A stretch of DNA of 64,000 nt, taken from a virus. A program made the translations under genes and the position numbers. Shown here one piece after another: positions 15,240-30,724 of the stretch (positions are counted from its first letter, which is position 1; the number at the start of each line of letters is the position of its first letter). Location: positions 64,001 to 128,000 of IMG/VR virus record IMGVR_UViG_3300017917_002108; one strand, 5' to 3'. The notes beneath the pieces are model-generated. The model searched no databases, was not told the DNA's origin, and saw nothing but the letters and a program-made list of their open reading frames with translations.

Positions 15240-15300
15240 ATGGTAGGCGAGGCCATAAACCGCATGTTAGGTATTTGCAAGCCCTAAATTGCATATGGAG
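15240..15300 (+). promoter_or_regulatory. candidate structured leader (tandem pseudoknot-like units) upstream of the DNA polymerase
   Basis: ATGGT/GCCAT with GCG/CGC, then TTAGG/CCTAA with TGCAA/TTGCA, ending at SD GGAG. Confidence 0.45.
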
Positions 15301-15304
15301 ATAT

Positions 15305-17974
15305 ATGAGTTACGTTGACGCATTCTACGATCGCGACGACGACACAATCCGTGTTGTTGAACGTGATGACAAGGGTCAGAGGCATTTCAAAGATTACCCT
15401 GCCAAACATCTATTCTATTATAGAGATCCCAAAGGTAAATTCCAAAGCATTTATGGAGAACCGTTATCTAGGGTTTCATGTAAGAACATCAAAGAACTTC
15501 GCAAAGAACTTGCGATACATTCAAATAAAAAATTATACGAATCCGATATAAATCCTATCTATCGGTGTCTCGAAGATCATTATCTAAATCAAGATGCTCC
15601 TAAACTTAATGTAGCATTTTTTGACATCGAGGTAGACTTTGATCCAGAACGTGGTTATGCATCACCAGACGATGCATTCATGCCTATTACCGCTATCGCT
15701 GTTCATTTGCAATGGATGGATACTCTTGTATGCTTGGCTATTCCGCCTAAAACACTTTCCATGCAAGAAGCTAAAAAAGCCGTAGAAGAATTCCCCAATA
15801 CCATGTTGTTCGATAACGAAGCAGACATGTTAGACACATTCTTAGATCTCATACAAGATGCAGATGTATTAAGCGGTTGGAATTCAGAAGGCTTTGATAT
15901 TCCCTATACTGTTAATCGTGTTACCAAAGTTCTAAGCAAAGAAGACACACGTAGATTCTGTCTTTGGAATTGCTATCCCAAAAAACGTGAATATGAAAAG
16001 TATGGCAAAACTGCTGTTACCTATGATCTCATAGGTCGAGTACATCTAGACAGTCTCGAACTTTATAGAAAATATACCTATGAAGAACGACATACCTATC
16101 GATTAGATGCCATCGGTGAGATGGAAATTGGAGAAAATAAAACTGTCTATGAAGGCACATTAGATCAATTATACAATAATGACTTCAAAAAGTTTATTGA
16201 ATATAATAGACAAGATTGTGCATTGTTAGATAAACTTGATAAGAAACTAAAATTTTTAGATTTGGCCAATACACTGGCTCATGAATGTACTGTTCTACTA
16301 CAAACTACCATGGGGGCTGTGGCTGTTACTGAGCAAGCAATTATCAATGAAGCTCATAAACGAGGGATGATCGTTCCTAATCGTAAGAAGATGGATGAAC
16401 AAGGTGATACACAGGCCGCCGGTGCCTATGTGGCATATCCTAAGAAAGGCATACATGAGTGGATTGGTTCTCTTGATATTAATAGTCTTTATCCTTCTGC
16501 TATTAGAGCTTTGAATATGGGTCCAGAAACCATCGTAGGCCAATTGCGTCAAGACGGTACTAAGGCGCATATCGAATCCGAAATGGCCAAGGGAAAATCA
16601 TTTGCTGCTGCGTGGGAAGGGATGTTTGGTAGCGTAGAATACACATCGGTGATGTCTAAAGAAGTGGGTAGAGAAATTACTATCGATTGGGAAGAAGGTA
16701 ATCATGATACCCTAAGTGCTGCTCAAATTTATAATCTTATATTTGAATCAAATCAGCCGTGGATGATCTCCGCTAACGGTACTATCTTTACCTATGAGAA
16801 AGAAGGAATCATTCCAGGTCTGTTGAAACGTTGGTACGCTGAACGTAAAGACATGCAGAAGAAACTTAAAGAATCTATTGCAGCCGGTAATAAGATCGAA
16901 GAAGAATATTGGGACAAACGTCAGTTGGTCAAGAAAATTAACTTGAACAGTTTATATGGTGCTATTCTTAATCCTGGCTGTCGTTTCTTTGATAACAGAA
17001 TTGGACAATCAACAACATTGACAGGTCGAGCTATTGCTAAACATATGGCTGGTAAAGTCAATGAAATCATCACAGGTACATTTGATCATATAGGCAAGGC
17101 GATTATCTATGGTGACACTGACTCATGTTACTTTTCAGCATACAACACTCTTAAAAAAGACATAGACAAAGGTTCCATACCTTGGAGTAAAGAGAATATT
17201 ATTGAGCTCTATGATACCATAGGCGAAGAAGTAAATTCAACATTCCCTAAATTTATGCAGGATGCGTTTCATTGTCCTAAGACTCGAGGAGAAGTGATCA
17301 AGGCCGGTCGAGAAATTGTCGCATCAAAAGGACTTTTCATTACCAAGAAACGTTATGCTGTTCTTTACTATGACAAAGAAGGCAAGCGTCAAGATGTAGA
17401 CGGAAAGACTGGTAAGATCAAAGCCATGGGACTTGATCTCAAACGTTCGGATACTCCTGTGGTCATTCAAGACTTTTTAAGTGATGTACTGACTCGTGTT
17501 CTTAATGGTGAGAATCGAGATGATATTCTTACCTATATCACGGATTTCCGCACTGAGTTCAAGACCAGACCCGGTTGGGAGAAGGGTTCGCCTAAACGTG
17601 CCAACAACATTACAGAATACGCTGCCAAGGAAAAGAAAGCAGGCAAAGCCAATATGCCAGGGCATGTTCGTGCAAGTCTTAACTGGAATACTTTGAAACG
17701 TATGATGGATGACAAGTACTCAATGAACATAGTCGATGGTATGAAGGTCATTGTCTGTAAGATCAAAGACAATCCCATGGGCTATACTTCAGTGGCATAT
17801 CCTGTAGACGAACTTAGATTACCTCAGTGGTTCAAAGATATGCCGTTCAACGACGCAGAGATGGAAAATGCGATCATTGACGAAAAACTAGAAAACTTAA
17901 TTGGCGTTCTAGAATGGGACATCGGTTCGACAAGATCCGATAATAATTTCAACAAATTATTTGATTTTGAGTGA
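15305..17974 (+). CDS. polB: family B DNA polymerase (T4 gp43-like)
   Basis: Exo motifs FDIE, WNSEGFD, YNRQD; polymerase motifs DINSLYP, KKINLNSLYG, YGDTDS, KKRY. Start taken at ATG 15305 with SD GGAG. Confidence 0.96.
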   Translation: MSYVDAFYDRDDDTIRVVERDDKGQRHFKDYPAKHLFYYRDPKGKFQSIYGEPLSRVSCKNIKELRKELAIHSNKKLYESDINPIYRCLEDHYLNQDAPKLNVAFFDIEVDFDPERGYASPDDAFMPITAIAVHLQWMDTLVCLAIPPKTLSMQEAKKAVEEFPNTMLFDNEADMLDTFLDLIQDADVLSGWNSEGFDIPYTVNRVTKVLSKEDTRRFCLWNCYPKKREYEKYGKTAVTYDLIGRVHLDSLELYRKYTYEERHTYRLDAIGEMEIGENKTVYEGTLDQLYNNDFKKFIEYNRQDCALLDKLDKKLKFLDLANTLAHECTVLLQTTMGAVAVTEQAIINEAHKRGMIVPNRKKMDEQGDTQAAGAYVAYPKKGIHEWIGSLDINSLYPSAIRALNMGPETIVGQLRQDGTKAHIESEMAKGKSFAAAWEGMFGSVEYTSVMSKEVGREITIDWEEGNHDTLSAAQIYNLIFESNQPWMISANGTIFTYEKEGIIPGLLKRWYAERKDMQKKLKESIAAGNKIEEEYWDKRQLVKKINLNSLYGAILNPGCRFFDNRIGQSTTLTGRAIAKHMAGKVNEIITGTFDHIGKAIIYGDTDSCYFSAYNTLKKDIDKGSIPWSKENIIELYDTIGEEVNSTFPKFMQDAFHCPKTRGEVIKAGREIVASKGLFITKKRYAVLYYDKEGKRQDVDGKTGKIKAMGLDLKRSDTPVVIQDFLSDVLTRVLNGENRDDILTYITDFRTEFKTRPGWEKGSPKRANNITEYAAKEKKAGKANMPGHVRASLNWNTLKRMMDDKYSMNIVDGMKVIVCKIKDNPMGYTSVAYPVDELRLPQWFKDMPFNDAEMENAIIDEKLENLIGVLEWDIGSTRSDNNFNKLFDFE

Positions 17975-18036: not shown

Positions 18037-18774
18037 ATGAAGGACATTTTACAAGACATCGTAAGCCATACACAAAATCTAGGCTTCTTAACCACAGTCA
18101 AAGTCACAGGCTCAGATGATAAGACACAGATCTTTTCTATGGCTGATGACAGATCGGTTATCATGGAGGCAGAAACTGCTAATCCATATTCGGATATGAT
18201 TGGTACTTTTGGTATGCCGCAGTTACAAAAGTTGAAATATCTCGTAGACGGTGCTGAATATCGTGACGAAGCTAAGATCAATATTACTTTTGCCGAAAGG
18301 AATGGCGAAACTATTCCTGTGGGTATTCACTTTGAAAACAAAGACGGCGACTTCAAGAACGACTATCGCTTTATGAATCAGGAAATCATCAACGAAAAGA
18401 TGAAGACCGTTAAGTTCCGCGGTGTTAAGTGGGACGTAGAGATTGAGCCAACTGTGGCAGCGGTACAGCGTTTTAACTTTCAAGCAGGTGCGCACAACGA
18501 ACATCCGACTTTTCTTGCCAAAACTGAGAATAGTAATCTAAAATTTATTTTTGGTGATGCATCAACTCATGCAGGTGAATTTATTTTTGCGCAGAATGTA
18601 GTAGGCAAACTGGACAGAGGTTGGACCTGGCCAGTGTTACCTATTCTAAGCATCCTTAAAATTGCCGATGTTAATAACACTAAAATGTCATTGAGTAACG
18701 AAGGTGCTATTCAGATCACTCTAGACAGCGGTCTTGCTACTTACAAATACATTATTCCAGCACAGGCGGCCTAA
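18037..18774 (+). CDS. putative sliding clamp (gp45/PCNA-like)
   Basis: 245 aa directly after polB; alternating beta/alpha pattern and C-terminal YKYIIPA typical of clamps. Confidence 0.62.
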   Translation: MKDILQDIVSHTQNLGFLTTVKVTGSDDKTQIFSMADDRSVIMEAETANPYSDMIGTFGMPQLQKLKYLVDGAEYRDEAKINITFAERNGETIPVGIHFENKDGDFKNDYRFMNQEIINEKMKTVKFRGVKWDVEIEPTVAAVQRFNFQAGAHNEHPTFLAKTENSNLKFIFGDASTHAGEFIFAQNVVGKLDRGWTWPVLPILSILKIADVNNTKMSLSNEGAIQITLDSGLATYKYIIPAQAA

Positions 18775-19142
18775 TGATTAATAACATTAGTAGTTCTAGC
18801 CAGCATCTCTATGCCGCAGGAGGTAGTTCAATGCCCTATGTGTCAGTGAATCATAATAATCCTTCATCAGGCATGTTACGTCTCAATGGTTCCGATATGG
18901 AAGTGTTTGACGGCAATACATGGATGAAAATTTATGCCAGTTCTGCCAACGTCGGCCTAAATAGTGATGCGGAACAGGCTGTTTCTTGGGCCATCAAACG
19001 TATGAAACAAGAAAAAGAGTGGTATGAGTTGGCTACAACTAATGAAGCAGTTCGTATAGCATTAGATCAGTTAGAACAGGCAAAGACAAGATTAGAACTC
19101 ACAACAATATTGGCAAAAGAACATGAACAGACAACCAGTTAA
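18774..19142 (+). CDS. hypothetical protein
   Basis: Coupled ORF (TAATG); GMLRLN..MEVFDG..W short motif. Confidence 0.7.
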   Translation: MINNISSSSQHLYAAGGSSMPYVSVNHNNPSSGMLRLNGSDMEVFDGNTWMKIYASSANVGLNSDAEQAVSWAIKRMKQEKEWYELATTNEAVRIALDQLEQAKTRLELTTILAKEHEQTTS

Positions 19143-20664
19143 TTTAACACCTTTACAGAAAGACTATGCCGTTTATCTACCTGCGATAAGTTGTTTCTTT
19201 TCTACCTATATCAGTAAACAGAGATTTGATAAATTTGTACCGGACGATAGGATTCCTCAGGGATTTGATCGTGGTATCGAAGGTATGAATTTTCTAAATC
19301 CTGAACAAGGGTATTTTACCTACAAGTATGGTCTGTATTCTGCGGGTCATGCACAATTAGATCTTGAAAAAACAATAATTCAAGATGCAATGATCCAAGA
19401 TAGAGATCGTAATAATACGGTAATCGTTGGCGATTCAGGTGGTTATCAAATTGGTAAAGGCGTTCTTAAATTTGATTGGCACAACTTCGAAGGCACAAGC
19501 GCCAATGCTACTAGAGATAAGATCCTCAATTGGCTCGAGCTGACCGCAGATTGGAGTATGTTGCTGGACGTCCCTACTTGGGCTAGTGATCACATACATA
19601 GTCCAAAAACCGGATTGAAAAGTTTTGAAGATTGTCTAAATAAGACTCTACACAATAATGACTACTTTATTCGTAATAGACTAGGACAGACTAAGTTTCT
19701 CAATGTCTTACAAGGCAGTGATTGGGAAACTGCACAAACTTGGTACGAAGCAGTAAAACATCTACCAACTGAAGGTTGGGCCATGGGTGGTAAGAACATG
19801 TGTGACATGGAAGTCGCACTCAAAAGACTTATCATCCTTCGTGATGACAAACTGTTAGATGATAGAAATTGGATGCACTTCTTAGGAACAGCTCAATTAG
19901 ATTGGAGTTGTTATCTAACCCTGATTCAAAGACAGATTAGGAAACATGTTAATGAAAACTTTACCATTTCTTTTGACTGCGCATCACCCTTCATTGCAAC
20001 CGCACACGGACTTGTCTACACCAACGCCCAACACACTAACAAACGCTGGTCAGTCATCATGGACAAAGCCCCAGACAACAAAGCCCTTAGCCAGGCTTTT
20101 AATGTCCCCTTTCCGTTCGAATCAGAAATCGGACGTAGATTGTCAATCGGAGACATTTGCTGGTATAAACCGGGCATGTTGAATAAGGTTGGCAAAGAAG
20201 GTAAGACATCGTGGGATAGTTTTGGTTATGCGCTAATGATGGCACATAATACATACTGCCATATTGTTGCTGTACAACGTGCTAATCAATTGATGGATAT
20301 CGAAACAACAAAGATCAGTCCTAACTGGCGCCAATGGAAGAATCTCAAAGACATGGACAAAAGCGATGAATATTCCGAATGGGTTCCTCGCAATATTCTA
20401 TACTTCCATAATTTTGTAGAAGAATTATTCAAGAGCGAAACTCCTATGCAGATGATTGAAGATGCTAGACCCATGTTGAATAAAATGATGGGCATGCGCC
20501 TACGTGGTGGTAACGCTAATAACACTTTTAACAAACATTTTGAAAGTGAAGAAATCGTACTAGATAAGTCAGTGTCACAGGTATCGGCCATGCCAGTACT
20601 AGATGAAGATAAATTGGATGAGCTTGCTCATGAGTTTTTAGAACAGGAGGCTAATAATGTATGA
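19123..20664 (+). CDS. dpdA: TGT-fold transglycosylase, DpdA-like 7-deazaguanine insertion enzyme
   Basis: TGT motifs GDSGGYQ, LDVP, VLQG, HFLG, SFDCASPF, HN; located near folE, queE, a queD-like gene and polB. Confidence 0.75.
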   Translation: MNRQPVNLTPLQKDYAVYLPAISCFFSTYISKQRFDKFVPDDRIPQGFDRGIEGMNFLNPEQGYFTYKYGLYSAGHAQLDLEKTIIQDAMIQDRDRNNTVIVGDSGGYQIGKGVLKFDWHNFEGTSANATRDKILNWLELTADWSMLLDVPTWASDHIHSPKTGLKSFEDCLNKTLHNNDYFIRNRLGQTKFLNVLQGSDWETAQTWYEAVKHLPTEGWAMGGKNMCDMEVALKRLIILRDDKLLDDRNWMHFLGTAQLDWSCYLTLIQRQIRKHVNENFTISFDCASPFIATAHGLVYTNAQHTNKRWSVIMDKAPDNKALSQAFNVPFPFESEIGRRLSIGDICWYKPGMLNKVGKEGKTSWDSFGYALMMAHNTYCHIVAVQRANQLMDIETTKISPNWRQWKNLKDMDKSDEYSEWVPRNILYFHNFVEELFKSETPMQMIEDARPMLNKMMGMRLRGGNANNTFNKHFESEEIVLDKSVSQVSAMPVLDEDKLDELAHEFLEQEANNV

Positions 20665-20866
20665 AAATCGAATCAAGCATTTACAAGAATCACATCGACT
20701 TCTTGACAATCAAATTGAAACATTGATGAAAAATGGACTCTATGAAGATCTAAAACTAGAAGAATTGAAGAAACAAAGGTTGCTTTTCAAGGACGAAATT
20801 GCTAGACTTACTAGACTGCAATGGGAACATGATCACGAAACCGTAGATTATGACGAAGAAAGATAA
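20657..20866 (+). CDS. DUF465/YdcH-like small coiled-coil protein
   Basis: H..LD.QI...LKKQRL.FKDEI pattern; SD GGAGG. Confidence 0.65.
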   Translation: MYENRIKHLQESHRLLDNQIETLMKNGLYEDLKLEELKKQRLLFKDEIARLTRLQWEHDHETVDYDEER

Positions 20867-21059
20867 TATGATTTTACTTAGAAAAGATATAACACAGATT
20901 CAAAATATCCTAGATAAATTTCCCAACATATCTAGTTTTGAAATCAATCAAGACAATAGCAGTGGCATTGGCTCAGTAGTCACCATGACATTCGATCATC
21001 AGATAGAAGATATTCAAGGATCTTTTACTGTAGAAATTTCAGGCATAGAAAGTTGGTAA
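20850..21059 (+). CDS. hypothetical protein
   Basis: Overlapping ORF in the operon. Confidence 0.6.
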   Translation: MTKKDNMILLRKDITQIQNILDKFPNISSFEINQDNSSGIGSVVTMTFDHQIEDIQGSFTVEISGIESW

Positions 21060-21061
21060 TC

Positions 21062-21469
21062 ATGTATACAGAAGAACAATACGAAGAATTTCAAAATCGT
21101 ATGCACGAACGTTTTCCTAAAATGTTTGCGGGAAAATATGGCGGCTTTGCCTGTGCACCAGGTTGGTGGCCTATGCTAGAAAATCTTTGCGAAGTTATAC
21201 AATCTCATATTGATCATAAAAAGGGCGAATGCTCTCAGGTTATCGTAGAACAAATCAAAGAAAAGTTTGGCACACTAAGATTTTATGTCAGCGGCGGTGA
21301 CGAATATACCAACGGTGCTATTTCTCTAGCAGAAAGCCTAAGCGGACATATGTGTGAGGAATGCGGTGCTCCTGGTAAGCGTGTCAGCGGAGGCTGGATT
21401 AAAACACTGTGCGAATTTCATATAGCCGAAAAAGAAGCACTTAAGGCTAATACTGTTAAGGAAGATTAA
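21062..21469 (+). CDS. hypothetical protein with C-terminal zinc-ribbon-like motif
   Basis: QIKEKFGTLRFY and CEECG...TLCEFH motifs. Confidence 0.7.
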   Translation: MYTEEQYEEFQNRMHERFPKMFAGKYGGFACAPGWWPMLENLCEVIQSHIDHKKGECSQVIVEQIKEKFGTLRFYVSGGDEYTNGAISLAESLSGHMCEECGAPGKRVSGGWIKTLCEFHIAEKEALKANTVKED

Positions 21470-22026
21470 TGAAAAGAGATTACTCGTCCGGAGTATCTGA
21501 CAATATCACCTTCTTTACAGGTGTTGAAATTGAACGGACTCCTGCATATCAAATGAAAACTCTATTTGTTGTAGGAGTTCATGATCCGTACGACATCCTA
21601 GAAATAGTAACAGAAAGTAGATCATATTTAGACGAGTCTAAGCATATTCGTCATATCTATTTTGGTGCCAACCAAAGTTTTAAGACCAGCGGTGTAAACG
21701 ATGTCGAAACTTGGCGTTCGTGGGAAAATATGATTTATGTATGTCTAGATTCTAAATATGATCTTTGGTGTACTCTAGATTTTGATGTATCCGAAACGGA
21801 GGGATTGCTAGAAAGCGGTCTTACCGAAAAGCGTAGATTTATTCCGCAAATTAGTGTAAAATTACCTTATATTAATCAACTAGGCTATAACGCTACACTG
21901 AAGATAGACGACAAAGATTTTTGTGCAACTAATCCTGGGGTATGGTGCCATAACCTACAGGATCTAATGGGTAGAGATAAGTTTACCGATTGGGATCAAT
22001 ATGGCAAGGACGAGATAATCAAATGA
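21469..22026 (+). CDS. conserved hypothetical protein in the deazaguanine cluster
   Basis: 185 aa; FTGVEIE, HIYFGANQSF, KIDDKDF.ATNPGVWCH; lies between dpdA and the queD-like gene. Confidence 0.72.
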   Translation: MKRDYSSGVSDNITFFTGVEIERTPAYQMKTLFVVGVHDPYDILEIVTESRSYLDESKHIRHIYFGANQSFKTSGVNDVETWRSWENMIYVCLDSKYDLWCTLDFDVSETEGLLESGLTEKRRFIPQISVKLPYINQLGYNATLKIDDKDFCATNPGVWCHNLQDLMGRDKFTDWDQYGKDEIIK

Positions 22027-22376
22027 GTGGTTATGGACAAGCGATAGGTTATACTAATCAGGCAAAAGTGTCTGCGATTAGACCTGCTCGTAAAGTGAGG
22101 AAACAAAAAGTGAAACTTACATTGAAACAACGATTTCGCAATTGGTTAAATGACACTGAAGAGGCCGATGTTCCTCAATTAGTAGAGTCAGATAGATTGT
22201 CTAGTGAAGGTATGCGTCTGCAGGTTCATAGAGCCAATGGCGGTTATGTTATAGAAACTCGTCACTATGACCATCAAAAAGATCGACACTATAATAATAT
22301 CCATATCATCACAGACAGCGACGATCTAGGAAATAAATTAGGTCAAATCATAATGATGGAGGCATTGAAGCGATGA
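22023..22376 (+). CDS. hypothetical protein
   Basis: ATG 22023 overlapping the upstream stop. Confidence 0.65.
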   Translation: MSGYGQAIGYTNQAKVSAIRPARKVRKQKVKLTLKQRFRNWLNDTEEADVPQLVESDRLSSEGMRLQVHRANGGYVIETRHYDHQKDRHYNNIHIITDSDDLGNKLGQIIMMEALKR

Positions 22377-22576
22377 AAGAATTTACAGTAAAAGAAAATC
22401 AGGGTTTTAGATTACGTGTAAAGAGTTGGAAGTGTCTCAGTCCTTCTAATCTAAATAGCATCGAATTTATAAATGAATCTCTAAACGAAGAGGGAGAAGT
22501 AACAACTGCATCAACATATAATTTCTTTATGGATGACATAGAAATCAAAACTCTGTGCGAAGGAATGCTTAAGTGA
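22373..22576 (+). CDS. hypothetical protein
   Basis: Coupled ORF; SD GGAGG. Confidence 0.6.
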   Translation: MKEFTVKENQGFRLRVKSWKCLSPSNLNSIEFINESLNEEGEVTTASTYNFFMDDIEIKTLCEGMLK

Positions 22577-22968
22577 TTATCAGACAAGATGTACGCCCAC
22601 ATAAAATGATTTGGGTGACCTTTCGAAAAGAAGGTATCCACAAATATCCGGCAGCCGCAACAGATCCTAATCTAGCAACAGGAGATGAATATGATGTTTC
22701 GTTTTTGGCTAATCCTCATCGCCATATTTTTCACTTTAGGGTTTGGCTTAGTGTCACCCACAATGATAGAGATGTGGAATTTATACAATTCAAGCGATGG
22801 CTCGAAAAACTGTATTCTAGCAACGAAGGTGTACTGTCGCTAGATTATAAAAGTTGTGAGATGATGAGCGACGATTTATATGCTCAGATTCACGCAAAGT
22901 ATCCAGATCGTGAGGTTTGGATTGAGGTCTCCGAAGACGGAGAAAATGGTTCGTTTATCAAATACTAA
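22573..22968 (+). CDS. QueD-like T-fold protein with LxxxHRHxF motif (DpdL-like candidate CDG decarboxylase)
   Basis: H near the N-terminus (EGIH); LANPHRHIF in place of QueD CxxxHGH; SCE and VSEDGEN T-fold motifs. Confidence 0.7.
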   Translation: MIIRQDVRPHKMIWVTFRKEGIHKYPAAATDPNLATGDEYDVSFLANPHRHIFHFRVWLSVTHNDRDVEFIQFKRWLEKLYSSNEGVLSLDYKSCEMMSDDLYAQIHAKYPDREVWIEVSEDGENGSFIKY

Positions 22969-22981
22969 TAAGGAAATAAAA

Positions 22982-23236
22982 ATGGCTCGTAACTACAAGG
23001 ACATCGATTATTTTGCAAGTCGTCCTGATGTTGTGAAAGTCTGGGATGATCTAGACGCCTATCTCGACTATTGTCGATTTGAACTCTGTGAGTTCAACCC
23101 TGCAGATCTTTATCGTAAGGATTCTGCTAATTACCAATCTTACCTAGCAAGTAAGCGACCACGTAGGCCATATCAAGGTAACAAGCCTCGCTGGGATAAC
23201 AACGGAAGACGCAATGGTCAAAGTTTTTCTCGTTGA
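22982..23236 (+). CDS. hypothetical protein
   Basis: ATG 22982 with SD AAGGA; Arg-rich C-terminus. Confidence 0.7.
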   Translation: MARNYKDIDYFASRPDVVKVWDDLDAYLDYCRFELCEFNPADLYRKDSANYQSYLASKRPRRPYQGNKPRWDNNGRRNGQSFSR

Positions 23237-24314
23237 TCTAGAAGCTGTTGAAACAAGGTACACAGGCGAGTGGAAAAACCACTTGCCTGCCCTGTTAAGA
23301 AAGAGAGGACACGATGTTCAAATTATCTCTGGTCCTACGGACATTCCTAGTGCCACTACTCCTGGCGCCTTTCTTAATTTTGGCGGGACTAATATCTATA
23401 AGTCTAGCCAAGTTGAGCAGATGGGCCGTTTATTTTGTGACGGAGCCATTCATCCCGGCGATCACTTTATTTTTACTGATGCTTGGCATCCTGGTATCAT
23501 AAATCTAAAGTACATGAGTGAATTACTTGGCATTCCTGTCAAGATTCACGCACTATGGCATGCCGGTAGTTATGATCCCCAAGACTTCTTAGGACGACTC
23601 GTTGGCAACAAGCCTTGGGTGAGACATGCTGAGAAATCTTTCTTTTCAGCTATCGACTATAATTATTTTGCCACAAATTTTCATATCGAACTCTTTGTGA
23701 GAAATTTACTCAACGACGGAACCTGTGAAAATCCATATCTCAACGAGGATCTAGAAGAAATCATCGACGGAGGGTGGCCAAATATTGTAAGAAGTGGATG
23801 GCCGATGGAATATATGGCAGATGCATTAGCCATGTATAAAAATATGCCGAAGCGAAATCTAATACTTTTTCCGCATAGGCTGGCTCCTGAAAAACAATTA
23901 CCGATATTTCAAGATCTAAAAGAGCATCTTCCTCAATATGAATTCAAAATCTGTCAAGAATATCCTTTGACAAAAAATGAATATCATAATATGTTAGGAG
24001 AAGCTAAATTAGTGTTCTCAGCTAATCTACAGGAAACACTAGGTATCAGTTGGTATGAAGGTGCTCTAGTAGATGCTATCCCAATGGTTCCGAACAGACT
24101 CAGCTATAAAGAAATGGCTTTGGACACATTTGTTTATCCCAGCGAATGGACTGAATCTTTCGAAGCATATACCGTATACAGGAAAGAAATCTGTCATAAG
24201 ATAATCCAGTATATGGAAAATTATGAAAAATTTTTACCAAGCCTAAATAAACAGGTAGATATATTAACTAAAAATTTCTTTAGTTGCGATAATCTATTAG
24301 AGATGTTAAAATAA
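23214..24314 (+). CDS. GT-B fold glycosyltransferase (GT4-like)
   Basis: FPHRLAPEK and ETLGISWYE (EX7E) motifs. Confidence 0.8.
   Translation: MVKVFLVDLEAVETRYTGEWKNHLPALLRKRGHDVQIISGPTDIPSATTPGAFLNFGGTNIYKSSQVEQMGRLFCDGAIHPGDHFIFTDAWHPGIINLKYMSELLGIPVKIHALWHAGSYDPQDFLGRLVGNKPWVRHAEKSFFSAIDYNYFATNFHIELFVRNLLNDGTCENPYLNEDLEEIIDGGWPNIVRSGWPMEYMADALAMYKNMPKRNLILFPHRLAPEKQLPIFQDLKEHLPQYEFKICQEYPLTKNEYHNMLGEAKLVFSANLQETLGISWYEGALVDAIPMVPNRLSYKEMALDTFVYPSEWTESFEAYTVYRKEICHKIIQYMENYEKFLPSLNKQVDILTKNFFSCDNLLEMLK
24284..24312 (+). promoter_or_regulatory. sigma70-type promoter for folE
   Basis: TTGCGA-17 nt-TAAAAT with extended -10 TGn. Confidence 0.6.
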
Positions 24315-24349
24315 TATGTCATCCACGACTATAACTCGGAGAATAACAA

Positions 24350-25183
24350 TTGACAAAATTCATACCAGATCCTGTGCTTAACACAGAGATTAACAGAGAA
24401 TTTAAAAAAGATGAATACGAGCCGCTAGGCAAACCGGTATATGTAAAAAAAGAAACTGCTCTAGATGCTATGGCAGGTGATGGTGGATATGAAGAAGCAT
24501 ATCTCGGTGACCATTTGCGTTTTAAAATGAAACGTGAAGGTAAGCGTTTTTGGGCCGGTGACAACATCAGTGACTTTTTACGCGAAGGTGATAAAGAGCG
24601 TCTAATCGACGAAGCAACAGAGGCATTTGAACTAGTGCTTGATCGTTTACTGATTGATCGAGAAAACGATCCCAACAGCAAAGGTACAGCACGTAGATTG
24701 GCTAAGATGTATTTTAATGAAATCATGTCAGGAAGATATGATTCTCTACCGGACGCAACTGCGTTCCCTAATGATACCGAGGAAAGATATGAAGGCATGT
24801 TGGTTGTTCGTAGTGAGTTGCGTAGTATGTGCTCTCATCATCACCAGCCCGTGGTTGGTGTTGCTTATATTGGCATTATTGCCGCTAGTAAACTTATCGG
24901 CCTATCTAAGTACACACGTATCGCACAGTGGTGTGCAAGACGTGGTACTCTCCAGGAGGAGCTTTGTAATGATATTGCTAGGGAGATCGAACGTGCCACA
25001 GGAGCCAAAGACCTAGGAGTCTATGTTCAGGCCACACATGGTTGTTGCGAGAATAGAGGTATTATGGCACATAGTAGTCTAACACAAACTACTGTGTTAA
25101 AAGGCGCCTTCAAAGAAGATGCAGGTACAAAGAAAGAATTCTTTGATAATATTAAAATGCAACAGGAGTTTGCCCCAAGATGA
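24350..25183 (+). CDS. folE: GTP cyclohydrolase I
   Basis: TARRLAKM, SMCSHH, IGLSK..RI, LQE, HGCCENRG motifs; TTG start with SD GGAG; N-terminal extension. Confidence 0.94.
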   Translation: MTKFIPDPVLNTEINREFKKDEYEPLGKPVYVKKETALDAMAGDGGYEEAYLGDHLRFKMKREGKRFWAGDNISDFLREGDKERLIDEATEAFELVLDRLLIDRENDPNSKGTARRLAKMYFNEIMSGRYDSLPDATAFPNDTEERYEGMLVVRSELRSMCSHHHQPVVGVAYIGIIAASKLIGLSKYTRIAQWCARRGTLQEELCNDIAREIERATGAKDLGVYVQATHGCCENRGIMAHSSLTQTTVLKGAFKEDAGTKKEFFDNIKMQQEFAPR

Positions 25184-25383
25184 GAAAAGAAATGATCGGT
25201 GTTTTGAAACAACATTTTGAAGCACATATTTTAAAACACAAAATGAATGTAGATATTATGCTAGGCAACCCTAGAGCTATTCCAGAACATACAGATCTTA
25301 TGGATGCTATAGAAAAAGAAGTTGCACAGATTGCCGAGTACATGGATAAACTAGAAGTAATGGAAAAGTACTTTAAGGATTAA
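25180..25383 (+). CDS. hypothetical protein
   Basis: Coupled 67-aa helical ORF. Confidence 0.65.
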   Translation: MRKEMIGVLKQHFEAHILKHKMNVDIMLGNPRAIPEHTDLMDAIEKEVAQIAEYMDKLEVMEKYFKD

Positions 25384-25385
25384 TC

Positions 25386-25604
25386 ATGGCCACTGCAAAA
25401 GACCTAATGGATAATCTTATATATAGAGCTAAAAACATTCAAGAATTTATTGTAGAACGAGAGTGGGAGTTGATTCCCAGCGGAGTGGTAAGATATAATA
25501 TTCAACATACCCAAGGCGAACTAGCTAGAATTTTCGTTCATGCAATGACACAAGATGAAGCAGAAAGATTAGTCGATGATTGGTTCGAAGAGGCAGAAGA
25601 ATAA
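25386..25604 (+). CDS. hypothetical protein
   Basis: SD AAGGA; 72 aa. Confidence 0.65.
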   Translation: MATAKDLMDNLIYRAKNIQEFIVEREWELIPSGVVRYNIQHTQGELARIFVHAMTQDEAERLVDDWFEEAEE

Positions 25605-26029
25605 TGCGATTCTTTTCTCCTCTACGCGATGACCTTATGGTCCAACAACAAGTAGATGATGCATGGCAACATTTTGTAGGTGTCATTATGCTCAATCAAA
25701 CAGGAAGGAAGGCAGTAAAGACTACACTTCCAGAATTCCTATATTGGTTTCCTACTCCTCATTCTTTATTACAGGCCAACGAAGAATTCGTAAAAAGCAT
25801 AATCGCTCCATTAGGTATGGTCAATATAAGATATAAGAGATTAAGAGGCATGTCCGAAGATTATCTATTATGGAATGGTGATAACGCTACCAAATTATAC
25901 GGTATCGGAAAATATGGCAGTGACAGCTATGAAATATTTTTCAAAGAAAATTACAGCGTAGAGCCAACAGATAAAGAACTTAAGCGATATCTTAACGAGG
26001 AGATCTTCAATGTTGTTAAAGTTACTTGA
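25604..26029 (+). CDS. HhH-GPD DNA glycosylase, MBD4-like
   Basis: IMLNQT, PLGM...R, LYGIGKYGSDSYEIF, and DKELKRY with the catalytic Asp position. Confidence 0.8.
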   Translation: MRFFSPLRDDLMVQQQVDDAWQHFVGVIMLNQTGRKAVKTTLPEFLYWFPTPHSLLQANEEFVKSIIAPLGMVNIRYKRLRGMSEDYLLWNGDNATKLYGIGKYGSDSYEIFFKENYSVEPTDKELKRYLNEEIFNVVKVT

Positions 26030-26480
26030 AAGATTAGGTCGAAAACGAATCATATTTGATCGTGTGCATAACGAACCGTATCTAGAAAGATATTATCTCT
26101 TTTTAAAAGAGCGTGAACGTTTTCCCTTTAATGTATTCTTGCATAAGTTCTTAAAGGGAGATCCAGACGATGTCCATGATCATCCATGGCCATACGCAAC
26201 ATTGATATTGAAAGGTGGGTATTATGAATGGGTTCCACAGTTTGATGATCAAGGCCTTAAATCTTGTGAGGTGCGAAAGTGGCGCGGTCCTGGTCATTTT
26301 CGTATATGTAGTCCTAACTCGTATCACCGCATTGAGCTTAAACCTGGCGTAACTGCATGGACATTGTTTATGCCTGGTCCTCACAAACGTGATTGGGGAT
26401 TTCTTGTAAACAACAAATGGATACAACACGAACAGTATCTAAAGGAGAGATATGAACAAGCTCGTAATCGACCAGCGTGA
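26010..26480 (+). CDS. cupin-fold protein
   Basis: HDHPW...GGYYE...HRIEL metal-binding pattern. Confidence 0.65.
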   Translation: MLLKLLERLGRKRIIFDRVHNEPYLERYYLFLKERERFPFNVFLHKFLKGDPDDVHDHPWPYATLILKGGYYEWVPQFDDQGLKSCEVRKWRGPGHFRICSPNSYHRIELKPGVTAWTLFMPGPHKRDWGFLVNNKWIQHEQYLKERYEQARNRPA

Positions 26481-27036
26481 ACTTCAAGGACTGGTTGCAA
26501 AAATATGTAGAGACATAACACAAAGTAATTGGAAACCAGATTATATCGTAGGAATCACTCGTGGTGGGCTGATTCCTGCTGTCATGATCAGTCAATATTT
26601 GAATATTCCAATGTGGACTCTTAATGTCAGTCTCAGAGACAACAACGAAGGCGAAAGTAACCTATGGATGGCCGAAGATGCTCTCGGACCTAATAGTAGA
26701 GATAGATTCATAGACGATCCAGACGATGTTGCAGGTGTCTTGAAGGCTGCAAGCGAGTTATTAGAAGCTGGCACATTCAAAGAAATATTATTAGTAGACG
26801 ATATCAACGACACAGGCTCCACATTTAATTGGATTATAAACGATTGGAAATCTAGTTGCTTTCCCGAAGATCCAGCTTGGGATGAAGTTTGGAATCAAAA
26901 TGTTAGATTCGCTGTTTTAATAGATAATCTTTCCAGTGACTGTGAATACAGTATGGATTATGTGGGTAAAGAAATTAATAAATCGGAAAACAATGTGTGG
27001 GTAGATTTTCCATGGGAAGAATGGTGGACAAAATGA
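26452..27036 (+). CDS. type I phosphoribosyltransferase (xanthine-guanine PRTase-like)
   Basis: VGITRGGLIPA, PRPP loop LLVDDINDTGST, C-terminal WVDFPWE. Confidence 0.88.
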   Translation: MNKLVIDQRELQGLVAKICRDITQSNWKPDYIVGITRGGLIPAVMISQYLNIPMWTLNVSLRDNNEGESNLWMAEDALGPNSRDRFIDDPDDVAGVLKAASELLEAGTFKEILLVDDINDTGSTFNWIINDWKSSCFPEDPAWDEVWNQNVRFAVLIDNLSSDCEYSMDYVGKEINKSENNVWVDFPWEEWWTK

Positions 27037-27416
27037 TTAAAGTAGTACAAGAACAACCAAATGATATCGATGAATCTAAGGCCCCTTGGACTGAACTTGT
27101 TGAAGAAGATTATCATGTGAAAGTATTTCAAGACAAATATCCAGTCACTGAAGGTCATCTATTATTTGTGCCTAAATATAACACAGTACATGTTCTAATG
27201 GATGCTATGGAAGATGCTGTAAGATATGGATTACAAAAAGTAGAAACCAAAGAGTGGGATGGGTTTAATCTAGGTATCAACATAGGACAAGCAGCAGGTC
27301 AAACTGTTGGTTGGCCGCATGTTCATCTAATTCCAAGACGCCAAGGCGATATGGAAGATCCCACAGGTGGTGTCAGACATGTAATACCAGAAAGAGGTAA
27401 TTATAGAAAGTGGTAA
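27033..27416 (+). CDS. HIT-family nucleotide hydrolase
   Basis: DKYPVTEGHLLFVP and AAGQTVGWPHVHLIPR (first His of the triad replaced by Trp). Confidence 0.85.
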   Translation: MIKVVQEQPNDIDESKAPWTELVEEDYHVKVFQDKYPVTEGHLLFVPKYNTVHVLMDAMEDAVRYGLQKVETKEWDGFNLGINIGQAAGQTVGWPHVHLIPRRQGDMEDPTGGVRHVIPERGNYRKW

Positions 27417-28249
27417 TGAACAAAAGAACTTTATTCATCGGTGATAGTCATACTATGGGGTATAAATCTGTTCCGGATAAAAATGGGCTGGGCAGTTTTA
27501 CTCAATGGAATGATAATAACTATGCAGAAATTTATTCAGAATACAATAAAAAACCTGTAGTCATCTATGCTTTATCGGGAGCAACAAATAGATTGTATAC
27601 CGATTGGCTAAAGTCTATGTTTGAAAAGTACGATGACATTGACGATGTGTTTATATGCCTTTCATCGTTTAATAGATTTATCATTGCCATTGATGATTTA
27701 ACTAACGAAGAAACTCTGCCCATTGATTGGTTTCAATACAAACTTGATAATTCAACAGATACTGTACATAGGTATATGGATGGCATAGTAAGAGACAAAA
27801 CTATGCAACTGTTGAATAAATCAACTTTTGCAGATTATGATAATTTTCCAGGAATAGAATTCAGTGGAGAAGATGGATTAATCACCCCCGATATAAGAAA
27901 ACATACCTATATGCAGGTTAAATTGTTTTTTGAACTAAACACATATCTCGAAAAGAGAGAATTTTTGAATAGTGTCTATACCTGGGATAATATTTGCAAA
28001 GATCACGGTGCTCAGCTCCATTTGTTCAATTTTACTAATAGATTAAAATTTCCCAGCGATTTAAGCTATTACGGGAAACTCAAAAATACTAAAGTAGCTA
28101 CTAAGACTGTAGAAACCTTTTTATCAGGCCTAGGAATAAATCATAAAGATTATTTAATAGAAGATAAAGAACATTACAATACCGAATATCATGAGTTAGT
28201 GGCAAAAAATTATATACCATGGTTAAAAACATTAAAAAATTACTCATAA
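27416..28249 (+). CDS. SGNH/GDSL-like protein
   Basis: FIGDSHT near the N-terminus, C-terminal DKEH (DxxH). Confidence 0.6.
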   Translation: MNKRTLFIGDSHTMGYKSVPDKNGLGSFTQWNDNNYAEIYSEYNKKPVVIYALSGATNRLYTDWLKSMFEKYDDIDDVFICLSSFNRFIIAIDDLTNEETLPIDWFQYKLDNSTDTVHRYMDGIVRDKTMQLLNKSTFADYDNFPGIEFSGEDGLITPDIRKHTYMQVKLFFELNTYLEKREFLNSVYTWDNICKDHGAQLHLFNFTNRLKFPSDLSYYGKLKNTKVATKTVETFLSGLGINHKDYLIEDKEHYNTEYHELVAKNYIPWLKTLKNYS

Positions 28250-28812
28250 CTGGAGATAGTTTTGCTGCTGTTTGGCCGGATTCAACTAATGGTTGGGTTA
28301 ATCTATTGGCGAGAGAATATGAAGTTTGCAATCTGGCTAAAGCAGGAGTTGGCGAATATAAGATCCTAAAACAAATAGAAAATATCAACATAAACAATTT
28401 CGATTGTGTGATCGTAAGTCATACCAGCCCTAGTAGAATTCATACTAAAAATCATCCTTTGCATACCACAGGTTTTCATAACGAATGTGATCTAATAGTC
28501 ACAGATTTAATGGCACATTGGAATCCCTTGAATAAAAATTTATCAGGGGCCAAATCATTCTTCAAATACCACTATGACGAACAATATCAGTTAGATATCT
28601 ATAAATTGTTGAGGACCAAAATAAATGATCTAATAAACATACCCTATATTAGTGTCTCCCATGTAGAAATAGCTAATCAATTACGAATTGAATCTCGGCA
28701 TATTGATTTCAGTGACCTCTGGAAAACAGAAAGAGGTAATGTGAATCACTACACTGACGCAGGGAATAAAATTGTTTACAATCAAATTAAAAATATAATA
28801 GAAACCATATGA
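28219..28812 (+). CDS. SGNH/GDSL-like protein
   Basis: ITGDSFA, NLAKAG, C-terminal NHY...GN. Confidence 0.62.
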   Translation: MVKNIKKLLITGDSFAAVWPDSTNGWVNLLAREYEVCNLAKAGVGEYKILKQIENININNFDCVIVSHTSPSRIHTKNHPLHTTGFHNECDLIVTDLMAHWNPLNKNLSGAKSFFKYHYDEQYQLDIYKLLRTKINDLINIPYISVSHVEIANQLRIESRHIDFSDLWKTERGNVNHYTDAGNKIVYNQIKNIIETI

Positions 28813-29009
28813 ACGATATACATGTAAATTGGAATCCTAAAAAAATCGATCATCTAGGATGGAACGAAATATGTTGCAGAATAACAGAACAATTTGGTCT
28901 CCCCGGAGATCGGTATGTGACTGAGGTCAGCGAAAATTATATGAAATTTAAATTTAGAGATGACCAAGATAGTCTGATGTGTAGGATGCTGTTAAGCGAA
29001 TACCTATGA
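28809..29009 (+). CDS. hypothetical protein
   Basis: Coupled ORF; FGLPGDRY motif. Confidence 0.65.
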   Translation: MNDIHVNWNPKKIDHLGWNEICCRITEQFGLPGDRYVTEVSENYMKFKFRDDQDSLMCRMLLSEYL

Positions 29010-29245
29010 TAAAATTTATTTTAGGATTCTTAGCTGCATGTTTGATTTGGGTTTGGGTATTGTCTAATGTTGATATACCCACATATAAAATCTATGACTG
29101 TGGTATGGCAGAATGGCATCCTGATACACCTCCCGAAGTGAAAGAAGAGTGTAGGAAAAGACGTTATCAAGAATGGATCAATCGACATGAAAGACAAATT
29201 AAAACACGCATACATGCAGACAGCATTTATTTTTTCAAGACTTAG
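29006..29245 (+). CDS. small membrane-anchored protein
   Basis: N-terminal TM, YDC..AEWHPD.P..VKEECR. Confidence 0.6.
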   Translation: MIKFILGFLAACLIWVWVLSNVDIPTYKIYDCGMAEWHPDTPPEVKEECRKRRYQEWINRHERQIKTRIHADSIYFFKT

Positions 29246-29714
29246 TCATGCTCGTAGATTACACGTTGGCGCTATCATTGTAAAGGATGATAGGATTATT
29301 TCTATTGGGTATAACGGCATGCCAGCAGGATGGGACAACGATTGTGAAAATAAAGATTATATGTCTAGTGATGCTGGTGGTTGGCTTGATCCTGATGAGA
29401 TAGAAGAACGCTGGCCTTATCAAGAACAGCAACTTCCAAAAGATTCTAATATATGGAGACGATATGCTCTCAAAACTAAACCGGAGGTATTACATGCTGA
29501 AACGAATGCGATCGCTAAACTTGCTAGAAGCACTGAGTCTGGGCTCAATGCTACTATGTTTATTACTCATAGTCCTTGCCTTGATTGTGCAAAGCTCATT
29601 TATCAAAGTGGCATTAATGCTGTCTATTATGCTCATGCTTATCGTAACGAAGATGGAATATCGTTCCTCAAAGCATCGGGAGTAGATGTTGAAAAATTGG
29701 ACGTTAACAGTTAA
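29187..29714 (+). CDS. dCMP deaminase
   Basis: VGAIIV, GYNG, HAETNAI and SPCLDC zinc motifs. Confidence 0.92.
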   Translation: MKDKLKHAYMQTAFIFSRLSHARRLHVGAIIVKDDRIISIGYNGMPAGWDNDCENKDYMSSDAGGWLDPDEIEERWPYQEQQLPKDSNIWRRYALKTKPEVLHAETNAIAKLARSTESGLNATMFITHSPCLDCAKLIYQSGINAVYYAHAYRNEDGISFLKASGVDVEKLDVNS

Positions 29715-29877
29715 CGACGACGGAGTAATTGTTCTTCCAGATGATCTGTTAACAGACCTAGGATGGACAGAAGGGGATACTCTTAAATGGATTGACAATC
29801 ATAATGGTTCGTGGAGTATTGTCAAGGAAGAAGACTTGACAAACTTTATTAAAAAAGGTATAATAAGTAATGAGTAA
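29686..29877 (+). CDS. AbrB/MazE/SpoVT-like DNA-binding protein
   Basis: IVLPDDLLTDLGWTEGDTLKW pattern. Confidence 0.7.
   Translation: MLKNWTLTVNDDGVIVLPDDLLTDLGWTEGDTLKWIDNHNGSWSIVKEEDLTNFIKKGIISNE
29836..29864 (+). promoter_or_regulatory. consensus sigma70 promoter for queE
   Basis: Perfect TTGACA-17 nt-TATAAT inside the upstream ORF; ATG 5 nt downstream. Confidence 0.85.
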
Positions 29878-30724
29878 AATAAAAATCGCAGAGCTGTTTT
29901 ACAGCATCCAAGGTGAAGGACGCTATATGGGGGTGCCCAGTGTGTTCCTTAGAACCTTTGGCTGTAACTTTAAATGTGCTGGGTTTGGAATGCCTAGGGG
30001 TGAACTAAGCTCAGAAGTAGAAGCCATTGCTGCTAGAGTATCGGAGTTTAAGAAGTATGAAGAACTTCCATTGGTTTCTACTGGTTGTGATAGCTATGCT
30101 AGCTGGGATCCTCGCTTTAAGGATCTTAGTCCAATGCTTACTATTGACGCCATCGCAGAAAGAATCTGCGAAATTTTACCATTCAACGGATGGCGAGAAG
30201 AGCACTTGGTTATTACAGGAGGAGAACCGTTGCTTGGGTGGCAACGTGCTTACCCAGAATTGCTGAGACATCCTAAGATGCAAGGCCTTAAAGAAATCAC
30301 ATTTGAAACAAATGGTACTCAACCTCTAACAGAAGAATTTAAAGATTACTTATTGGAATGGTTGATGCCTCATCCAGAATATCAAAAAGAAATCACATTC
30401 AGCGTCAGTGCCAAACTAAGTTGTAGTGGCGAGGAAAGGCATGAAGCCATACGTCCAGAAGTAGTATGCGGATATCAAGACTGGGGACATACTTATCTTA
30501 AATTTGTTGTAGCCACAGAAGAAGACGTAGAAGAAGCTATTGAAACAGCAGATATCTATCGTGCAGAAGGATTTACTGGTTCAATTTACTTGATGCCTGT
30601 GGGCGGTGTTGAAAGTGTGTACACACTAAATAATCGTCGCGTAGCAGAACTAGCGATGAAGAACGGACTAAGATATAGCGACAGATTGCAGGTGCCGCTG
30701 TTTAAAAATGAATGGGGAACTTGA
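29870..30724 (+). CDS. queE: 7-carboxy-7-deazaguanine synthase (radical SAM)
   Basis: ELFYSIQGEG, VFLRTFGCN, GCDS, ITGGEP, ETNGT, SAK, KFVV, RLQ motifs. Confidence 0.92.
   Translation: MSKIKIAELFYSIQGEGRYMGVPSVFLRTFGCNFKCAGFGMPRGELSSEVEAIAARVSEFKKYEELPLVSTGCDSYASWDPRFKDLSPMLTIDAIAERICEILPFNGWREEHLVITGGEPLLGWQRAYPELLRHPKMQGLKEITFETNGTQPLTEEFKDYLLEWLMPHPEYQKEITFSVSAKLSCSGEERHEAIRPEVVCGYQDWGHTYLKFVVATEEDVEEAIETADIYRAEGFTGSIYLMPVGGVESVYTLNNRRVAELAMKNGLRYSDRLQVPLFKNEWGT

Follow-up and report, generated by a model that had tools for sequence, protein, structure and literature searches.

The window analysed here, a stretch of 64,000 nucleotides comprising bases 64001-128000 of the 146.6-kb IMG/VR phage fragment IMGVR_UViG_3300017917_002108 (about 41% complete), is a fragment of an uncultured PA5oct-like jumbo phage. 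Between its DNA polymerase and RNase H genes a cluster of co-oriented genes is embedded, which we interpret, with a probability of roughly 70%, as a DpdL-type 7-deazaguanine DNA-modification module; the modified base is possibly decorated by a glycosyltransferase, and a phosphoribosyltransferase (PRTase) is an accessory of the module. The core of the module is a system of a known kind (DpdL/DpdA), and the stop of the pathway at 7-carboxy-7-deazaguanine (CDG) or 7-deazaguanine has already been published (PMC10516641). A conserved GT4-type glycosyltransferase, a 185-aa protein and variable sugar genes lie outside the account given by the published pathway. The analysis established which proteins the genes encode, their folds, the conservation of catalytic residues and the patterns of co-occurrence.

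The 131-aa protein of the cluster was identified as DpdL because it contains the corresponding signature and is homologous to named proteins of the phages phiST and ACP17. DpdL is defined by the motif LxxxHRHxF, which replaces the QueD motif CxxxHGH, and is a predicted CDG decarboxylase (Cui et al. 2023, PMC10516641). In the window protein the signature reads L-ANP-HRH-I-F, and the protein differs from the QueD that the contig itself encodes. The identities are 54% to ACP17 gp125 (5e-35) and 33% to phiST CGPG_00067 (2e-9), with more than 90% of the protein covered in the comparison. DpdL has been reported in phages that lack QueC and possess FolE, QueD, QueE and a DpdA (PMC10516641). FolE, QueE and a DpdA are encoded in the window, whereas a canonical QueD (PTPS, 2.5e-16) is encoded on the same contig outside of it. 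For QueE, the five best of six NCBIfam matches are QueE models scoring below their equivalog cut-offs, and the Pfam model Radical_SAM yielded 29.0 vs. 29.5. As the initial annotation of this DNA had stated, the window contains no QueC, QueF, ArcS or canonical QueD; moreover, neither QueF nor ArcS was found on the entire 146.6-kb fragment, which represents about 41% of a genome. The same annotation had proposed that the product stops at CDG or is decarboxylated, and the identity of DpdL points to the second option. CDG is the branch point of the pathway, and the end product is most likely decarboxylated 7-deazaguanine, the decarboxylation being the predicted task of DpdL.

The 513-aa protein is a DpdA-family transglycosylase, with DNA as the predicted target. 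It matches no entry of Pfam, PHROG or NCBIfam. PF01702, the Pfam model of tRNA-guanine transglycosylase (TGT), was not hit at gathering score by this protein or in a six-frame scan of the contig, and was matched by only two of 55 relatives (E 0.007). Single-sequence and profile searches against PDB sequences gave nothing significant, with TGT appearing only at E 1.8. The published DpdA2-4 likewise require searches of HHpred level. The fold was deduced from an AlphaFold model (pLDDT 89.9, pTM 0.90), for which the top 50 Foldseek matches are all TGT (E about 5e-8). Structural alignment yielded Z-scores of 17.3 for ArcTGT, 16.6 for QTRT2, 16.2 for TGT and 14.9 for DpdA, the bacterial DNA preQ0 insertase; across five entries of the TGT superfamily, Cap10 included, the values were 13.4-17.3, and for generic TIM barrels they did not exceed 11.3. 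The protein carries the sequence GDSGGYQ (family motif DSGG[FY]Q), and D104-S105-G107, D149, H252 and D285 are invariant in 55 relatives with 27-53% identity. The conserved Asp columns align with those of the DpdA proteins from ACP17 and Xanthomonas phage X1. By the numbering of Z. mobilis TGT, we take D104, D149 and D285 to match the catalytic and substrate-binding Asp residues. In agreement with this alignment, hhalign gave probabilities of 96.8% for ACP17 gp123 and of 94.9% for X1 DpdA, which places the protein that had been called DpdA-like with these two enzymes. The relation to phiST DpdA3 (CGPG_00065) is weak (56% probability, E 1e-4, 83 columns) and not detectable by BLASTP, and ACP17 gp123 likewise has no BLAST similarity to DpdA3. 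The family is large, with at least 7,972 matching proteins that form 953 clusters at 50% identity and occur on contigs of up to 384 kb. DNA is the probable target of the enzyme, judging from its location in a polymerase block, the presence of DpdL and the modification of PA5oct DNA at G. The latter DNA resists several restriction enzymes with G-containing sites and is a target of nucleases that recognise modified G (PMC12191111).

In order to determine which genes belong to the module, 80 related loci were fetched by means of a 12-sequence transglycosylase alignment, and the 29 loci that extend 9 kb or more downstream of the transglycosylase gene were used for counting. Most constant are the transglycosylase and DpdL (29 loci each), the 185-aa protein (likewise 29), the glycosyltransferase (28), a small basic protein (27) and QueE (26). 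More variable are FolE, the cupin-like protein and the PRTase (22 each) as well as the HIT protein (18). One relative, a 353-kb genome with a completeness of 99% (record G001, locus L063), retains the transglycosylase, DpdL, the glycosyltransferase and the 185-aa protein, whereas the PRTase was not found in it. The co-occurrence with dpdA that had been expected of three genes is thus pronounced for the glycosyltransferase and the 185-aa protein, and only partial for the PRTase.

Among cultured phages, homologues of the 185-aa protein are confined to PA5oct-like phages and ACP17, in which the gene abuts dpdA. About 20 of its residues are invariant. No match was found in Pfam, NCBIfam or PHROG, or among PDB sequences and PDB profiles, and hhalign detected no hidden homologue among the cluster neighbours of X1, Phosso, BUCT-ZZ01, PA5oct and phiST. 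Leads from the ESM Atlas were sub-threshold (0.89, one of them a Glyco_transf_6 cluster) and were not used. The small basic protein matches no family; its isoelectric point (pI) is of little diagnostic value, as in this acidic proteome such values fail to distinguish DNA-binding proteins from the rest.

The 366-aa protein is, according to its predicted fold, a GT4-type glycosyltransferase. With its model (pLDDT 82), Foldseek retrieved BA1558 (2jjm), BshA, MshA and PimB' (E 6e-10 to 1e-7, TM 0.6-0.66), and structural alignment gave Z-scores of 20-23 over 300-316 residues for the GT4 enzymes BshA, PimA/PimB', MshA and sucrose-phosphate synthase, compared to 16.9 for the T4 alpha-glucosyltransferase. 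The EX7E motif, which marks GT4 enzymes, is represented by E274-x7-E282. This motif and the donor-binding Arg/Lys pair (R222, K227) belong to the C-terminal domain. In 30 sequences with identities down to 24%, no variation was seen at R222, E226, K227 and E282, and conservation of E274 is 90% or more. The window protein does not match the Pfam model Glycos_transf_1 (PF00534), which is matched by six of its 30 relatives (best E-value 3.8e-6) and approached by ACP17 gp124 (21.1 bits, cut-off 26.4); searches with the single sequence and the profile against PDB sequences yielded nothing significant.

The gene of this glycosyltransferase adjoins dpdL in PA5oct, ACP17, Phosso, X1 and BUCT-ZZ01, despite differing gene orders. 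At the sole locus of the 29 that lacks it, another Glycos_transf_1 protein occupies its place. The gene that follows varies. A UDP-glucose/GDP-mannose dehydrogenase is encoded directly after the glycosyltransferase at seven related loci, and a full-length epimerase/4,6-dehydratase takes this position in L073, where it was scanned; L082 and L084 carry clustered homologues of it. A GFO/ADH oxidoreductase pair, scanned in L015 and with clustered homologues in L030 and L041, is situated upstream, where it separates the transglycosylase gene from that of the 185-aa protein. The PA5oct cluster includes a short epimerase-like gene. If the sugar were part of the pathway and under diversifying pressure, a fixed transferase beside a changing sugar supply would be expected, as is seen. 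At two further loci, the gene immediately after that of the glycosyltransferase encodes a putative 2-oxoglutarate-Fe(II) oxygenase (weak match, 1.3e-4; L080:13796-14374, scanned; L083:13787-14365); this enzyme could make a hydroxyl handle for a sugar. In one relative, a gene for a 675-aa protein of the subtilase family is inserted after the glycosyltransferase-like gene (L074:12643-14670).

The following sequence of reactions is proposed. FolE, the QueD encoded outside the window, and QueE would convert GTP to CDG, which DpdL, as predicted, would decarboxylate to 7-deazaguanine. After replication, the 513-aa enzyme would exchange guanine in the phage DNA for 7-deazaguanine, with the 185-aa protein presumably acting as a helper of undefined kind. 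The glycosyltransferase, whose gene constantly accompanies dpdL and dpdA throughout this clade and in five further lineages of phages, would most likely decorate the inserted base or its precursor from a nucleotide sugar; the final base may then be a glycosylated deazaguanine. The dispensable PRTase, and perhaps the HIT protein, would most simply recycle the released guanine to GMP and GTP, the latter being the substrate of FolE. Inferred in this scheme are DNA as the target, the decarboxylation by DpdL, the sugar step with its acceptor, and the salvage of guanine. That the DNA of the clade and of PA5oct, ACP17, X1, Phosso and BUCT-ZZ01 contains a sugar-bearing 7-deazaguanine, installed by the GT4-like enzyme and differing in its sugar according to the adjacent nucleotide-sugar genes, is a tentative proposal which we would not regard as the expected outcome.

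Several points weigh against the interpretation as a DpdL-type module with a possibly decorated base. The contig represents only about 41% of a genome. No nucleoside analysis of ACP17 or PA5oct was found in the literature, and PA5oct is known only to contain some modified G. The decarboxylase function of DpdL is a prediction in the literature as well. When dpdL and dpdA of phiST or ACP17 were expressed heterologously in E. coli, no 2'-deoxy-7-deazaguanosine (dDG) was formed, and the authors suspected that enzymes were missing (PMC10516641). 7-Deazaguanine offers no obvious hydroxyl group for O-glycosylation, and the glycosyltransferase could serve an unrelated acceptor. Finally, the PRTase could alternatively be a loader of CDG or 7-deazaguanine similar to TubE (PMC6112128), and a QueC-like gene of this genome leaves room for products of the preQ0 or 7-amido-7-deazaguanine (ADG) type.

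The strongest competing explanation is a plain dDG system as in phiST, in which the glycosyltransferase and the sugar genes of the relatives have another target, be it a protein, a small molecule or a glycan of the host, and are mere neighbours of the module. We consider this a serious but minority possibility. The DNA of phiST is fully dDG (Table 1 of PMC10516641), which this phage attains with FolE, QueD, QueE, DpdL and DpdA3 and without such a glycosyltransferase; furthermore, eight of about 14 DpdL-bearing lineages of cultured phages lack a homologue of the 366-aa protein, whose nearest structural neighbours are enzymes for small molecules and glycans and not for DNA. A mere neighbour, however, would hardly adjoin dpdL in six separate lineages whose gene orders are otherwise shuffled, nor be present at all but one locus of the clade and be substituted by another glycosyltransferase at the exception. 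Moreover, the sugar-nucleotide genes vary at exactly the position of this gene, and dpdL and dpdA of ACP17 alone gave no dDG. The glycosyltransferase that had been noticed in the initial annotation is genuine with regard to its fold, its occurrence and its location beside dpdL in five cultured phages; a sugar on the base itself is a serious possibility, though less likely than not.

A further alternative concerns the level at which the base enters DNA. In a tubercidin-like route, the PRTase would load CDG or 7-deazaguanine onto phosphoribosyl pyrophosphate (PRPP), the product would be converted to a dNTP and incorporated by PolB, the HIT protein would trim or sanitise the pool, and the TGT-fold enzyme would be secondary. 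The precedent is TubE, a proven CDG-PRPP phosphoribosyltransferase of the QueC-less tubercidin pathway, which also comprises a decarboxylase, a GMP-reductase-like enzyme and a nucleotide hydrolase (PMC6112128). In 50,697 phage records, homologues of the PRTase occur only in deazaguanine phages, namely the phiST group, immuto_2-6A, PA5oct-like phages and BUCT-ZZ01; the match in immuto_2-6A, whose DNA contains full fdPreQ1 (PMC10516641), is short and covers 52 residues only. Two relatives have an IMPDH/GMP-reductase-family gene (7e-67) beside the PRTase in the deazaguanine cluster (L082:16755-18581 and L084:11808-13308); in L082 it lies about 180 bp from the PRTase gene, and in L084 the homologue ends just inside the PRTase reading frame. 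This pair, the same as TubD/TubE, could serve a route to a nucleotide of the 7-deazaadenine type or the disposal of guanine. In the phiST cluster, CGPG_00066 (L004:6332-6811), located between the genes of DpdL and DpdA3, matches families of P-loop kinases (AAA_18, 9.4e-7); along with the MazG-like gene of this cluster and the PRTase of the phage, it hints at nucleotide-level steps in phiST. Relatives of the window phage carry MazG and thymidylate synthase, and in the 99%-complete genome a MazG-family gene is located about 200 bp after queD (G001, 162943-163717).

Despite these signs, incorporation at the nucleotide level is an unlikely route here. Since neither the 99%-complete relative nor seven of the 29 loci possess the PRTase, it cannot be the step through which the base must enter DNA in these phages and is a dispensable accessory, and the transglycosylase is present in all loci. 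The originally suggested role of a loader for the phage PolB is thus improbable as an obligatory one, even though the TubE precedent stands. The nearest NCBIfam and PDB matches of the PRTase are xanthine/guanine and hypoxanthine-guanine PRTases, all named families scoring below their cut-offs; salvage of the guanine exchanged out of DNA is the function we infer. On this fragment (about 41% of a genome), no MazG, ribonucleotide reductase, enzyme of the thymidylate-synthase family or dGTP-removing enzyme was found. Some restriction enzymes with G-containing sites cut PA5oct DNA and others do not, which the authors read as motif-specific modification (PMC12191111). Homologues of the HIT protein are common in unrelated phages; a specific link to the pathway, such as the pool-sanitising function proposed earlier, is therefore not supported.

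The designation of the cluster as QueC-less applies to the window and to the 99%-complete relative, in which no QueC was found, but not to this genome as a whole: the same contig encodes, outside the window, a 197-aa PP-loop protein that resembles QueC (PF06508, 30.1 bits with a cut-off of 22; phrog_1550, 2.5e-16). This protein might complete the classical route, so that preQ0, ADG or a derivative of these would be present in the DNA, either by itself or next to 7-deazaguanine. It possesses an SGGLDS motif and a C-terminal Cys cluster, and its gene recurs in 23 other viral contigs, including six large ones of which three also encode DpdL. However, the protein is very divergent and remains far below the NCBIfam QueC equivalog (TIGR00364, 15.8 bits, cut-off 150), and the PP-loop motif is its sole likeness to the PP-loop protein of the X1 cluster. 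Its gene, surrounded by tail-fibre-like genes at a distance of about 28 kb from the cluster, is absent from eight close relatives, the 99%-complete genome included. Considering also that DpdL has been reported in phages without QueC, a classical route is decidedly improbable. That the TGT-fold protein modifies phage or host tRNA instead of DNA is more improbable still: its fold is as near to tRNA transglycosylases as to bacterial DpdA, and the comparison does not discriminate between the two activities, but no invariant or near-invariant cysteine of the TGT zinc site is present in 55 relatives, the gene is located together with dpdL between polymerase and replication genes, and DpdL phages have modified DNA, as has PA5oct at G.

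The genes of the block and the QueC-like gene are compiled in the following table. All genes named in the initial annotation are plus-strand open reading frames at the coordinates given there, and their identities are backed by profiles, homology or predicted folds.

Table 1. Genes of the modification block and the QueC-like gene of the same contig. Positions refer to the window unless a locus is named.
Gene product	Position	Strand	Basis and remarks
Family B DNA polymerase, first gene of the co-oriented replication/modification block	15275..17974	+	PF00136 5.6e-36; PF03104 5.2e-19
245-aa protein, putative sliding clamp	18037..18774	+	phrog_12062, a PHROG without function; 28/29 relatives
DpdA-family transglycosylase, 513 aa, ACP17/X1 type	19123..20664	+	TGT fold; profile comparison
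185-aa protein, companion of transglycosylase and DpdL	21469..22026	+	29/29 loci
DpdL, QueD-like T-fold protein, predicted CDG decarboxylase, 131 aa	22573..22968	+	phrog_17812; signature; homology
Small basic protein between DpdL and glycosyltransferase, about 84 aa from an internal ATG (frame callable from 22880)	22982..23236	+	27/29 loci; pI 9.9
GT4-like (GT-B fold) glycosyltransferase, 366 aa	23214..24314	+	Predicted fold; conserved residues
FolE, GTP cyclohydrolase I, first pathway step	24350..25183	+	PF01227 2.4e-38; phrog_2197 6.8e-43
HhH-GPD (endonuclease III-like) protein, 149 aa	25580-26029	+	PF00730 1.4e-8; 6/29 relatives
Type I purine PRTase (accessory)	26452..27036	+	PF00156 4e-15, 55.9 bits (cut-off 26.3); PRPP loop VDDINDTGST
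HIT-family nucleotide hydrolase/transferase (accessory)	26997..27416 (alternative start 27033)	+	PF01230 3.5e-10; 18/29 loci
QueE, 7-carboxy-7-deazaguanine synthase (radical SAM)	29870..30724	+	phrog_2076 6.5e-53, residues 2-283
QueC-like PP-loop protein (gene region)	L001:1498-2528, about 9 kb before the window begins	-	Overlaps a 153-aa unknown protein

Between about 13.7 kb and about 40 kb of the window, every long reading frame is on the plus strand. PolB is followed by the 245-aa protein, the 513-aa protein, several small frames, the 185-aa protein, DpdL, the small basic protein, the glycosyltransferase, FolE, the HhH-GPD protein, the cupin-like protein, the PRTase, whose gene is overlapped by that of the HIT protein, two GDSL-like proteins, a dCMP deaminase, QueE and a 5'-3' exonuclease/RNase H. 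A megablast search of the locus against 50,697 phage records gave no match. PolB is 51% identical to the PA5oct polymerase; the latter is interrupted by a homing-endonuclease gene (L003:7605-12831), whereas the window homologue is a single intact frame of 899 residues. The location of the cluster downstream of a polymerase and a clamp gene is confirmed by Pfam with respect to PolB; the clamp is less certain, as besides the PHROG match the syntenic gene of Phosso is annotated as a sliding clamp and the PA5oct homologue as a structural protein.

Three further genes of the block deserve mention. Host END nucleases sense hypermodified DNA through an inactive EndoIII domain (PMC12191111), and the phage's own HhH-GPD protein inside the modification block might act as a glycosylase or as a decoy. 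A hydroxylase giving a handle for the sugar was envisaged for the cupin-like gene (26010-26480), which was left out of the module since homologues of it are common in phages that lack deazaguanine genes. The two tandem proteins of 279 and 197 aa (27410-28812) have N-terminal GDS motifs typical of GDSL/SGNH hydrolases, weak Pfam support and homologues in four to six of the 29 relatives. Enzymes of the GDSL/SGNH type often acylate or deacylate sugars.

The glycosylated DNA bases met in the literature consulted are pyrimidines, and no published description of a sugar on a deazaguanine in DNA was found; if the proposal of a sugar-bearing deazaguanine were true, it would be a sugar hypermodification based on a purine, and the cultured phages with the same module make it testable. 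Such a sugar could explain the lack of dDG upon expression of dpdL and dpdA in E. coli as well as the attack on PA5oct DNA by nucleases that sense hypermodified DNA. Furthermore, the restriction of Gpt-like PRTases to deazaguanine phages, together with the precedent of TubE, reopens the question of whether full replacement of G is strictly post-replicative.

Precedents for the individual parts of the module exist in several known systems. The DNA glucosyltransferases of phage T4 share the GT-B fold with the window enzyme, but require a hydroxymethyl group. Glycosylated 7-deazapurine natural products such as huimycin and the dapiramicins are a precedent for a glycosyltransferase acting on a base of the 7-deazaguanine type: HuiG transfers N-acetylglucosamine to the 2-amino group of such a base (PMC7439116), its substrate being, in contrast, the free O-methylated preQ0 base. 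What was seen to link the window enzyme with HuiG and the T4 enzymes is a shared fold. With the tubercidin pathway (TubE, TubD, TubG; PMC6112128) the window shares a QueC-less route via CDG and a PRTase of the PF00156 family, along with a decarboxylation (predicted for DpdL) and a hydrolase acting on nucleotides, and the relatives L082 and L084 additionally share a GMP-reductase-family gene beside the PRTase. Tubercidin, however, is a secondary metabolite made without a transglycosylase; its decarboxylase is of the UbiD type, and a Nudix hydrolase stands in the place taken by HIT here.

Closer is the DpdL-type dDG system of phiST (FolE, QueD, QueE, DpdL, DpdA3; PMC10516641), which has in common with the window the QueC-independent branch from CDG, a DpdL with the LxxxHRHxF motif (33% identity), a protein of the TGT superfamily in a cluster next to the polymerase, and a homologous PRTase. 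It differs in its transglycosylase (259 aa, compared to 513 aa for the ACP17/X1 type found here) and possesses MazG-like and kinase-like genes instead of the GT4 and the 185-aa protein that are tied to the module here. Closest are the Acidovorax phage ACP17 and the Pseudomonas jumbo phage PA5oct, which have the same quartet of a DpdA-type transglycosylase, a GT4-like enzyme, DpdL and the 185-aa protein, plus QueE. The identities to ACP17 and PA5oct are 35% and 42% for the GT4-like enzyme, 54% and 55% for DpdL, and 27-28% and 43% for the 185-aa protein. PA5oct further shares the order from PolB to RNase H and a PRTase inside the cluster, with its 185-aa gene being located about 26 kb away; its dpdA-like gene is EST35_0316, followed in number by those of the glycosyltransferase (EST35_0317) and DpdL (EST35_0318), and its PRTase gene is EST35_0321. 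Compared to both phages, the window adds FolE, the HhH-GPD protein, the cupin, the HIT protein, two GDSL-like genes and a dCMP deaminase within the block.

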